A stretch of DNA of 64,000 bases from contig CM000208.1 in assembly GCA_000002445.1 (NCBI GenBank), positions 3,648,001 to 3,712,000 on the forward strand, in the 5' to 3' direction. Positions 33,994 through 35,811 of this stretch are shown in pieces. The DNA is from Trypanosoma brucei. Its lineage: Eukaryota. The notes beneath the pieces were generated by a model. That model did no database searches and was not told the origin of the DNA. It was given only the letters and a program-made list of their open reading frames with translations. Position 1 is the stretch's first letter. Each line of letters opens with the position of its first letter. The translations under genes were made by a program, and so were the position numbers.

Positions 33994-35811
33994 ATGACAC
34001 GCATGCGAGTGGACGCTAAGCTGCTCTTGAAAAGCGAAGATGACTTCCGACGCCTGTTGGAGCTGCTGCGGCCATTCCATTTACGCACGTGGAAGTATGA
34101 AGATTTTTACTTTGATACACCTAACTTCCTTTTGATGGCGAAGGACGTGCAGCTTCGGCTTCGTGTGCCTTTTAAGTCTTCCGACGGTAAAGATGAGAAG
34201 TTGGCAGGCGCTCAGGGCTCGAATATGCTTTGCCATGTTTCTCTCACTCTCAAGACTAACAGTTCGGTCGATGTCGGTGGACAAACTGCTGGCATTTTTG
34301 AAATGTTTCCGTTTACACCGAAAGATGTTGATGACATGCTGCAGGAAGATTCATTGGTTAGCGTGTTGAAGAATCGTAGCAGCGATGAACCTGCTAAGAC
34401 GGTTTTGGAATATCTAACAAGGGCTTCTGAGGAATATGGCGAGGAGTTGGTACTGACGCGCTTTGCCAGTTTTGAGACAACTCGAAGGCAATACAAGTTT
34501 GTGCCACATCTTGGCTTTGGTAGCGCACACAGTTCCGACAAAGATGTTGCATCGGAAAAGAATAAATCAGACCCACCACGCCTTTATGTGGATGAAGTAC
34601 CAATGGGTGATTTCAAATCTTATGAAGTAGAAGTGCAAGGTGTTACTGATCCACTCGCAGACGTCTGTCAAGATTTGATGGATTACCTGAACGAGAAAGG
34701 CATAGAATTTACCCACAGCTTATCTGGAAAGCTGAATCGCTTCATGACCCGCACCTTGGAGCTTGAAGAAATGAAGGAAGAATCCCAGTGTGTACGTCTC
34801 CGCATCAAGGGAAACAAGGGTTATGAAGAGGTATGTAGATGGCAAAACGAGGAGAATGAGATCAGTCTCGATCCGATTCCAAAGCGCGGGGCTCCACCTG
34901 TAGATAACGATAAGCCTACCTTTGGAGTGACGCAAATGGCATCTTCCTTGTTAGGGTTGGGACCACTTACTTCACAGGCTTCCCGAATGACACATTCGCA
35001 GAGCGTACGATTAAAGAGAATTCGAGAGGGCAATCATGGTGACGAAGAGTATTTTGAAAACTATTTTTTCGATGATCGCCCCAATGGAACCTTGGCAGCT
35101 AAAAAGTATACACTACGGTTGAGATGTTGCAACCCCCCTACCGCCTTCAGCCTCGAGCTTCGGAAAGAAAAATGGAGCGCTGGTGGTGTGAAGGGCTACG
35201 AGCGGAGACGCGCGTACATATCCGGTGATGTAGCTCGACTTATGCTCCGTGACCCTAATAAATTTTTGAATTCACTATCTTCTCAGAGTAGTCTTGGTCA
35301 TTTGCTACGACGGGACATGGGACTGCAGAAGCTAACCATCGTGGGTTACTGTAAAACGCATCGCATCACATATAATGGTAAGATTATCGAGAGAAGAATG
35401 GTGGAAGACTCCCAGAGAACCCGGGACGGTAACGCGGGAAAGGTGGCGGCACGACCACCCGGTGTGGAATTCACTCTTTTTCATGGACCGTCTAGCGCGG
35501 GATGTAGAGGTGAATTTTCCATCCAGTTAAACCGCATCATGGTTGATACCGGTAGTGATCCTGTGAAAGTCGCAAAAAGGGCATCAGAGGAACGTTGTTG
35601 CTCCATTTTTAACCCCCGTGGCTGCTCTCCCTTCCCGCGGGAACCATCAGAGACGGAATCGTATGAAGTGAAGTTGGCTGGACTTCCTGAAGGTTTGGCT
35701 GCTACAGCAGAGGACTGGCTGGTTTCTCAGCTTCACCAGCGCCAAGTGCAGTGGGAGGTAGTTATGTCTGCTGGCATGGGGCAGTATCATCCTTCCTTGG
35801 CTGCAGCGTAA
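33994..35811 (+). CDS. Tandem CYTH-domain (triphosphate tunnel metalloenzyme family) protein
   Basis: The N-terminal region WKYEDFYFDTPNFLLMAKDVQLRLRV matches the CYTH core, as in thiamine triphosphatase ([24 protein letters not shown]). A second copy EEYFENYFFDDRPNGTLAAKKYTLRLRC lies ~350 aa downstream. The canonical N-terminal ExExK is replaced by RVDAK. Confidence 0.65.
   Translation: MTRMRVDAKLLLKSEDDFRRLLELLRPFHLRTWKYEDFYFDTPNFLLMAKDVQLRLRVPFKSSDGKDEKLAGAQGSNMLCHVSLTLKTNSSVDVGGQTAGIFEMFPFTPKDVDDMLQEDSLVSVLKNRSSDEPAKTVLEYLTRASEEYGEELVLTRFASFETTRRQYKFVPHLGFGSAHSSDKDVASEKNKSDPPRLYVDEVPMGDFKSYEVEVQGVTDPLADVCQDLMDYLNEKGIEFTHSLSGKLNRFMTRTLELEEMKEESQCVRLRIKGNKGYEEVCRWQNEENEISLDPIPKRGAPPVDNDKPTFGVTQMASSLLGLGPLTSQASRMTHSQSVRLKRIREGNHGDEEYFENYFFDDRPNGTLAAKKYTLRLRCCNPPTAFSLELRKEKWSAGGVKGYERRRAYISGDVARLMLRDPNKFLNSLSSQSSLGHLLRRDMGLQKLTIVGYCKTHRITYNGKIIERRMVEDSQRTRDGNAGKVAARPPGVEFTLFHGPSSAGCRGEFSIQLNRIMVDTGSDPVKVAKRASEERCCSIFNPRGCSPFPREPSETESYEVKLAGLPEGLAATAEDWLVSQLHQRQVQWEVVMSAGMGQYHPSLAAA

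Follow-up and report, generated by a model that had tools for sequence, protein, structure and literature searches.

Two fused CYTH/TTM domains in a Trypanosoma brucei protein: a conserved putative binding tunnel, a depleted second metal site and an eroded second tunnel

A tandem CYTH gene and its possible role

A gene on the + strand of a 64,000-nucleotide stretch of Trypanosoma brucei DNA (contig CM000208.1, positions 3,648,001 to 3,712,000; the whole stretch is called the window here) had been predicted from the sequence alone to encode a protein with two CYTH (triphosphate tunnel) domains in tandem, with the catalytic glutamates at the N-terminus replaced. This raises the question of whether the protein is an enzyme, as TTM/CYTH proteins are generally taken to be, or a binding protein built on the same fold. 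We give about even chances to the reading that the protein acts as a pseudoenzyme or ligand reader in which a single tunnel, that of the first domain (D1), is competent, in analogy to the RESC1-RESC2 pair of kinetoplastids.

The coding sequence is as follows (evidence: list of open reading frames (ORFs), Pfam, match in T. equiperdum):

33994..35811, + strand: tandem CYTH/TTM protein, complete, 605 amino acids (aa) plus stop

It is the sole long ORF at the locus. Its 605-aa product was 99% identical to a T. equiperdum entry named 'CYTH domain containing protein, putative'; a CYTH-domain annotation of the gene is already on record. Translation may start at Met4 (nucleotide 34003) instead of Met1 (33994-34005), because the orthologues open directly with MQV[E/D]xK and strand 1 of TTM3 begins at residue 1.

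Sequence evidence for two CYTH/TTM domains

Both CYTH units predicted within 33994-35811 were recovered. The Pfam search that had been suggested as a check matched PF01928 to the whole protein with 44.1 bits (cutoff 23.2; E=2.7e-11), and D1 alone (aa 1-276) scored 36.3 bits against Pfam CYTH. The closest solved relatives in a phmmer search of the PDB were plant TTM3 tripolyphosphatases. The family profile of D1 aligned end to end with AtTTM3 of Arabidopsis (E=3.4e-20), and that of the second domain (D2) matched the TTM3-like chain 8h92 (E=4.4e-13) and 6yp4 (5.3e-9). By sequence and predicted fold together, plant TTM3 proteins (AtTTM3, 3v85 and 5a5y-5a68; HpAC1, 6yp4; jujube TTM3-like, 8h92) were closest to both domains.

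The T. brucei D2 by itself had no match in Pfam and none in the phmmer search of the PDB. It is identified as CYTH because of the orthologous D2 segments, the D2 profile and the predicted fold. Eight of the 15 orthologous segments passed Pfam CYTH individually (best E=6.2e-11). A chance motif match as the explanation of the second domain was rejected on the basis of the D2 profile, these orthologue matches and the Foldseek results described below. An NCBIfam search with the protein gave no match, and no Pfam domain other than CYTH was found in the 605 aa; in particular, the Pfam matches contained no RNA-binding domain. Taken together, the profiles, the D2 matches of the orthologues and the AlphaFold2/Foldseek results confirm the tandem CYTH architecture.

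The two cores named in the original prediction translate to exactly the motifs described: positions 34099-34167 give EDFYFDTPNFLLMAKDVQLRLRV and positions 35044-35130 give EEYFENYFFDDRPNGTLAAKKYTLRLRCC. They matched each other in BLASTP with E=7e-4 in a single comparison (YEDFYFD..LRLRV and FENYFFDD..LRLRC). The second core does belong to a CYTH domain, but it covers only strands 2-3 of D2. The domain opens about 90 residues earlier, at aa ~262 (nucleotide ~34777), with the strand 1 sequence SQCVRLRIKG.

The layout of the protein is as follows (all on the + strand):

34003..34758, +: D1, aa 4-255, TTM3-like triphosphate tunnel (Pfam, profile, AlphaFold2/Foldseek, residue table)
34006..34020, +: D1 strand 1, R5-V-D7-A-K9, replaces ExExK (AtTTM3 E2, E4, K6; alignment)
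34099..34167, +: D1 strands 2-3, aa 36-58, EDFYFD...LRLRV; D41 and R55/R57 correspond to AtTTM3 D38 and R52/R54
34621..34638, +: D1 Y210-E211-V-E213-V-Q215; E213 is the site-1 Glu (AtTTM3 E169), Q215 stands in place of the site-2 Glu171
34777..35793, +: D2, aa 262-~600, second predicted TTM tunnel fold with three insertions and eroded tunnel residues
34783..34797, +: D2 strand 1, S264-Q-C266-V-R268, replaces ExExK, both acidic residues gone
34864..35040, +: trypanosomatid-specific insertion between helix 1 and strand 2 of D2, aa ~291-349 (family alignment, AlphaFold2)
35044..35130, +: D2 strands 2-3, aa 351-379, EEYFENYFFDD...LRLRCC; holds D360 and R375/R377
35662..35679, +: D2 Y557-E558-V-K560-L-A562; Lys at the site-1 Glu position

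Predicted structure

AlphaFold2 was run on the full-length protein with the family alignment (predicted template modelling score, pTM, 0.73). The model contains two units with an identical order of strands and helices, and its low-confidence segments coincide with the insertions. The ~60-aa insertion in D2 was modelled with low confidence and as mostly disordered over 293-340; the compact bodonid forms of the protein lack it. A model of D2 alone reached a pTM of 0.72.

The top Foldseek matches of the full-length and the D2-only model were all TTM structures, with target template modelling (TM) scores of 0.77-0.84. For the full-length model, HpAC1 (6yp4) and AtTTM3 were best (2e-13, target TM 0.80-0.84); these matches are assigned to D1 by assumption, as Foldseek does not report the aligned part of the query. 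For the D2-only model, HpAC1 (6yp4) was best with 5.8e-10, and 8h92_B had a target TM of 0.82. An antiparallel beta-barrel tunnel fold is thus predicted for both domains, in line with the structural check proposed at the outset.

Weaker matches of the full-length model were a VTC chain (9umg_E, 4.3e-5) and class IV cyclases (3n0z, 6.3e-5; 2fjt, 1.9e-4); class IV cyclase structures overall spanned 6e-5 to 7e-4. The best RESC match of the D2 model, 8fn4_1 (E=0.011, probability 0.33), fell short of significance, as did the matches to the RNA triphosphatase Pct1.

Tunnel residues of both domains

In AtTTM3, metal site 1 consists of the substrate and Glu169, a residue that all characterised TTMs are said to share without exception. 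Metal site 2 (Glu2, Glu4 and Glu171, with Glu90 supporting) activates the attacking water. Inorganic tripolyphosphate (PPPi) is hydrolysed at a rate of about 10 per second; this is strongly decreased when E2 or E4 is mutated, even to Asp, and mutation of E90 to Ala lowers activity. Arg52 is catalytic, and the remaining basic residues bind the substrate (PMC4641920).

We aligned both domains of 21 family members to AtTTM3; additional bodonid sequences and T. cruzi were read separately. The T. brucei residues at the 14 tunnel positions are:

AtTTM3 E2: D1 R5, D2 S264
AtTTM3 E4: D1 D7, D2 C266
AtTTM3 K6: D1 K9, D2 R268
AtTTM3 D38: D1 D41, D2 D360
AtTTM3 R52: D1 R55, D2 R375
AtTTM3 R54: D1 R57, D2 R377
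AtTTM3 K76: D1 K87, D2 R390
AtTTM3 E90: D1 I101, D2 R404
AtTTM3 R143: D1 R164, D2 R457
AtTTM3 D156: D1 D200, D2 N513
AtTTM3 E167: D1 E211, D2 E558
AtTTM3 E169: D1 E213, D2 K560
AtTTM3 E171: D1 Q215, D2 A562
AtTTM3 K200: D1 K246, D2 G594

Ten positions of D1, comprising the binding residues and metal site 1 (equivalents of K6, D38, R52, R54, K76, R143, D156, E167, E169 and K200), were conserved in 21/21 members. D1 thus shares with plant TTM3 the tunnel basic residues, D38, D156, E167 and the site-1 Glu169. The acidic patch E2/E4/E90/E171, complete in plant TTM3, is reduced to one residue in the tandem family: in D1 the E2 equivalent was acidic in one of the 21 members and the E90 and E171 equivalents in none. 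Only the E4 position was mostly acidic (E in 14 members, D in five, A in two). The replacements in the patch were mostly Q, hydrophobic residues or T, and P; the E2 position is Arg in T. brucei and T. congolense and Lys in T. rangeli. The sequences read separately obeyed the same rule, except for a Gly at the E4 position of T. cruzi.

The replacement of ExExK in the first domain by RVDAK, as originally described, is confirmed by the alignment of strand 1 (MRVDAKL) to AtTTM3 (MEVEVKL), which gives RxDxK. The N-terminal glutamates are indeed replaced, but the loss is larger and older than described. In both domains, nearly every family member lacks three of the four site-2 residues (the equivalents of E2, E90 and E171). 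Strand 1 reads QxExK in D1 and VxDxK in D2 across the family, and the classical ExExK was found in neither T. brucei domain.

The first domain had been singled out as the defective one. This did not hold: D1 is the better preserved domain, with its ten invariant positions, and in T. brucei it is D2 that is degenerate (S264, C266, N513, K560, G594). All six tunnel basic residues are present in D1; five of the six positions are basic in D2 (R268, R375, R377, R390, R457), and K200 is replaced by G594. The site-1 Glu is invariant in D1 across the family (E213 in T. brucei) and is a Lys (K560) in the T. brucei D2, which, compared with plant TTM3, also lacks the D156 and K200 equivalents. The net charge over the 14 positions was -2 in AtTTM3, +1 to +4 in D1 of the family and +7 in the T. 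brucei D2.

Outside Trypanosoma, D2 keeps the D1-like pattern in all 14 members and in the additional bodonid sequences. Within the genus, the losses differ. T. brucei and T. congolense have E169 replaced by K, D156 by N or S and K200 by G or D. In T. vivax, R52, R54, K76 and K6 are gone. In both T. rangeli and T. cruzi, E stands in place of R52 and G in place of E169. D2 of T. grayi is nearly intact. We rejected a decay of D2 as a whole, as its core identity among Trypanosoma species equals that of D1 (36.0% vs 37.7%). By these alignments, the tunnel residues of D2 are eroded lineage by lineage within Trypanosoma, and the fold is still constrained.

A family found in kinetoplastids

With a threshold of E≤0.001, an exhaustive HMMER scan of 1.84 billion representative sequences returned 22 proteins, of which P0022, a green-algal TTM3 with a single domain, lies outside the family; this aside, the scan contained no family member beyond kinetoplastids and environmental relatives. 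The named members were from T. congolense, T. vivax, T. melophagium, T. grayi, T. rangeli, Angomonas, Strigomonas and Phytomonas, and a search seeded with the compact forms added T. cruzi and Bodo saltans. All named members are kinetoplastids, from Bodo saltans to Trypanosoma. With the full protein or a 15-sequence alignment as query, word-indexed searches yielded no entry other than the 99%-identical one of T. equiperdum, probably because low-complexity inserts filled up the list of candidates.

The bodonid forms are compact (427-475 aa) and consist of two TTM3-like units back to back. Judged by this distribution, the tandem family arose before the bodonid/trypanosomatid split. That tandem CYTH proteins are uncommon was borne out, as the exhaustive search found this kinetoplastid family only and the literature searched contained no mention of tandem CYTH/TTM proteins. 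Compared with that literature, three points are new: the tandem architecture, the loss of site 2 throughout the clade alongside full conservation of the binding site, and a decay of the second tunnel that differs between lineages.

Binding or catalysis

Because the binding and site-1 residues are invariant and the site-2 patch has been missing since before the bodonid/trypanosomatid split, D1 appears to carry a signature of selection for binding a metal-triphosphate-type ligand and not for canonical two-metal hydrolysis. In the reading that we prefer, the protein would be soluble and its two fused TTM3-type tunnel domains would form an intramolecular pseudo-dimer. D1 would use its six basic residues to grip the triphosphate, together with the aspartates and E213, which would complete the substrate-metal complex at site 1. 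Three of the four acids of the second metal site would be gone (E2 to R5, E90 to I101, E171 to Q215) and the fourth weakened (E4 to D7). With the grip and site 1 retained and site 2 mostly lost, tight binding and poor or nil canonical two-metal hydrolysis are predicted, which would make D1 a reader or sensor module. Candidate ligands are PPPi or short polyphosphate (polyP), the pyrophosphate end of an inositol pyrophosphate, and a nucleoside triphosphate (NTP) or 5'-triphosphate (5'-PPP) end. D2 would ancestrally have had the same configuration and, in Trypanosoma, would have lost ligand and metal residues lineage by lineage under a constrained fold. The T. brucei D2 may now be a very basic pseudo-tunnel that lacks a metal site and serves as a scaffold, possibly as a metal-independent polyanion site. 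Ligand binding, the lack of catalysis and the identity of the ligand are what we infer from the architecture, predicted fold, residue states and conservation. A non-canonical, binding-type role, as the original prediction had suggested, is the most reasonable reading of the residue patterns and of the analogy with RESC.

This analogy is with the RESC1-RESC2 (GAP2/GAP1) heterodimer, which binds mitochondrial guide RNA and which we liken to the tandem protein from sequence: it is likewise kinetoplastid-specific and has one competent and one degenerate tunnel. The RESC barrels lack two of three equivalent glutamates and were judged inactive, and only RESC2 binds a 5'-triphosphate (PMC10201420). 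Measured by the same loss of two of the Cet1 E305/E307/E496 equivalents, D1 lacks those of E2 and E171, and D2 lacks all three. However, the RESC barrels are Cet1-like, 10-stranded, domain-swapped and made of two polypeptides, whereas the T. brucei protein is TTM3-like and a single chain. The likeness is one of analogy and not of membership, and homology does not appear to reach beyond the superfamily.

A possible ligand is suggested by T. cruzi, in which the CYTH-domain protein TcCLB.506503.160 was enriched on a resin carrying the inositol pyrophosphate 5-IP7 in both replicative stages (bioRxiv 10.1101/2020.01.09.900860). Its contig also carries a kinesin and gMDH, and the window has kinesins downstream of the CYTH gene. 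Synteny between the window and T. cruzi contig 506503 extends to a kinesin but not to MDH, which was not found within the 64 kb, and is thus partial. TcCLB.506503.160 is probably orthologous to the T. brucei gene.

Several points weigh against a pure binding role. At the E4 position, 19/21 D1 domains have an acidic residue (E or D). E211 (E167 equivalent) is invariant, and so is R55, the equivalent of the catalytic Arg52, which would suit catalysis no less than binding. With these residues, D1 might use a single metal or build its second metal site in another way, and alternative catalytic residues have been proposed for other TTMs. The AlphaFold2 models were built on a thin basis, an alignment of 15 sequences (mean predicted local distance difference test score 72-73), and the tunnel closure, the electrostatics and the D1-D2 interface are inferred. 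Moreover, the 5-IP7 pulldown was a proteome-wide screen with a highly charged bait, and only annotation and partial synteny connect it with the T. brucei protein.

The same residues could be read as those of a working enzyme: D1 would be a metal-dependent tripolyphosphatase/NTPase like plant TTM3, acting via D7 with E211/E213/D200 or via a non-canonical general base, and the protein an ordinary short-chain polyphosphatase with a degenerate extra domain. Its nearest homologues by sequence and fold are active TTM3-type enzymes, it keeps the Arg52 equivalent, the site-1 Glu and one acid of the patch, and the strong purifying selection across the D1 tunnel is compatible with catalysis. We nevertheless consider this rather unlikely, as virtually no member has an acid at the E2, E90 or E171 position, whereas the activity of AtTTM3 falls when E2 or E4 is changed to Asp or E90 to Ala (PMC4641920) and Cet1-type enzymes are reported to be inactivated by a single mutation at any of the three equivalent Glu (PMC10201420). 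The protein also falls outside the functional definition of TTM3: the acidic patch is incomplete, and plant TTM3 is a single domain of ~210 aa, whereas the T. brucei protein has two fused domains with insertions over 605 aa. By profile and predicted fold it belongs to the CYTH/TTM superfamily, within which the TTM3 branch is its nearest. The Cet1-type RNA triphosphatases (yeast Cet1p, TbCet1) share the superfamily, but they are essential enzymes with intact E305/E307/E496, and the Pct1 matches of the T. brucei protein were not significant. In yeast, two Cet1p tunnels act together as a homodimer, to which the tandem fusion is superficially similar.

A transfer of the NTP gamma-phosphate to an acceptor instead of water would make the protein a Vtc4-like phosphotransferase, i.e. 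a soluble polyP former. The polyphosphate polymerase Vtc4p, which has the inactive paralogues Vtc2p/Vtc3p, has a TTM tunnel with site 1, no site 2 and Lys458, and D1 shares all three (PMC4641920): it has E213, lacks the site-2 patch, and K246, the equivalent of the catalytic Lys458, is invariant (K200 in AtTTM3). The E2 position is even basic in T. brucei, T. congolense and T. rangeli. However, the acidic patch of Vtc4p is replaced by basic residues, whereas here only the E2 position is basic, and in some species only; Vtc4p is an SPX-TTM-transmembrane protein of the VTC complex, and the T. brucei protein has no SPX or membrane domains. The VTC structural match is far weaker than that to TTM3 (9umg_E, 4.3e-5 vs 2e-13), and K200 is not diagnostic, as hydrolytic TTM3s keep it also. 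This role is quite improbable in our view. A broader variant, which we rate only slightly higher and still as improbable, is that the tandem family, in soluble form and independently of VTC, senses condensed phosphates or acts on them as an enzyme. It would either make short polyP outside acidocalcisomes by phosphotransfer in the manner of Vtc4 or be a hitherto unrecognised non-SPX receptor for inositol pyrophosphates/PPPi with two tunnels reading two phosphate groups, and in Trypanosoma the system would have been reduced to a single reading tunnel. Very improbable, at a level just below the phosphotransferase, is a reader of RNA 5'-triphosphate ends, which would be the equivalent of RESC2 in the nucleus or cytosol, with pppN-RNA bound by D1. 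Kinetoplastids provide a precedent in paired inactive TTM-like barrels of which only one binds 5'-PPP (PMC10201420), and the same logic of two missing Glu out of three holds here, but the RESC match was marginal (8fn4_1) and Pfam detected no RNA-binding domain. Least credible, and close to dismissal, is a class IV (CyaB-like) adenylate cyclase. The Bodo saltans/JGI database entries P0030, P0026 and P0018 are named 'adenylate cyclase, putative' or 'adenylate cyclase class IV', and the plant TTM3-like structures 6yp4 and 8h92 were deposited under adenylyl cyclase names. This label is inherited from the founding member of CYTH, however, and the title of 6yp4 reports a dominant triphosphatase activity. 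Class IV cyclase structures were much weaker matches (3n0z and 2fjt), the acidic patch is missing, and an intact ExExK with acidic metal ligands was not found.

Binding by a single competent tunnel is therefore the reading that we take further. TTM/CYTH proteins are usually seen as enzymes; in this family, the grip half of the tunnel is conserved from Bodo to Trypanosoma and the catalytic metal site is missing. This suggests a protein dedicated to reading triphosphate, polyphosphate or inositol-pyrophosphate ligands, a kind of receptor of which little is known outside SPX. Trypanosomatid osmoregulation and infectivity depend on polyP and inositol pyrophosphate metabolism (PMC13251457, PMC13375126). 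No close host counterpart is apparent, because the exhaustive search returned no member beyond kinetoplastids and environmental relatives. If the T. cruzi 5-IP7 pulldown concerns the orthologue, a testable ligand hypothesis already exists. With the stepwise decay of its second tunnel, different in each lineage, Trypanosoma also offers a clean case from nature of how a catalytic fold, once duplicated, becomes a structural pseudo-domain.

Genomic setting and neighbouring genes

Every long ORF of the window lies on the + strand, and the spacers are AT-rich and pyrimidine-rich with (TA)n, a layout in the style of kinetoplastids. The CYTH gene has as neighbours a protein kinase, an H3-like histone, a DEAD-type helicase, an RPB3-like RNA polymerase subunit, UTP11 and two kinesins. 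One further feature was noted ~320 nucleotides 5' of the CYTH ATG:

33616..33677, + strand: polypyrimidine tract, 62 nucleotides

In view of general kinetoplastid biology, it is probably the trans-splicing/polyadenylation signal of the CYTH gene.

The CYTH and histone genes are islands of normal guanine-cytosine (GC) content (48% and 51%) in ~16 kb of low-complexity spacer with 32-36% GC (27653-44115). The intergenic stretches in this region are unusually long (6.3, 2.6 and 5.2 kb). Directly 5' of the CYTH gene, a 104-aa ORF (33160-33474, +) encodes a product whose N-terminus resembles a signal peptide and which contains a hydrophobic segment of transmembrane type. A Pfam scan of this ORF gave no match; it may be a genuine small membrane-protein gene.

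The H3-like histone gene directly 3' of the CYTH gene (38448-38867, +; Pfam Histone E=6.9e-40) is presumably the H3 variant H3V. The order of CYTH and then H3-like gene recurs on a bodonid-like contig (L001, histone at 2511-2957); the histones of this contig and the window are 56% identical, the CYTH proteins only about 21%. The gene 3' of the bodonid histone was considered as a counterpart of the helicase ORFs of the window and was rejected, as the sequences are not homologous.

From the neighbour order and the ids of H3V and gMDH, we take Tb927.10.15340 as the unconfirmed candidate id of the CYTH gene. A literature search by the ids Tb927.10.15310-15360 did not identify the CYTH gene in the main text of any paper. 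Two gene slots 5' of it, a 451-aa ORF (26297-27652, +) had no Pfam domain; by gene-order counting, its unconfirmed candidate id is Tb927.10.15310, a gene reported to activate expression when its product is tethered to mRNA (bioRxiv 10.1101/2020.03.02.973057).

A helicase-like ORF (DEAD/AAA_19, 794 aa, 44116-46500, +) directly abuts a 974-aa ORF (46500-49424, +) with no spacer. The frame of the latter is open already from 46449 and overlaps the 3' end of the helicase ORF. The two look like one gene of ~1770 aa broken by a frameshift; possible explanations are a pseudogene, a polymorphism between strains and an error in the assembly.

Two kinesin-like genes stand in tandem downstream of the CYTH gene (54385-57672 and 60145-64000, +). 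Pfam identifies a Kinesin motor domain in the first (E=2.4e-88); in the second, motor motifs were recognised by eye only, and the gene continues past the end of the window.

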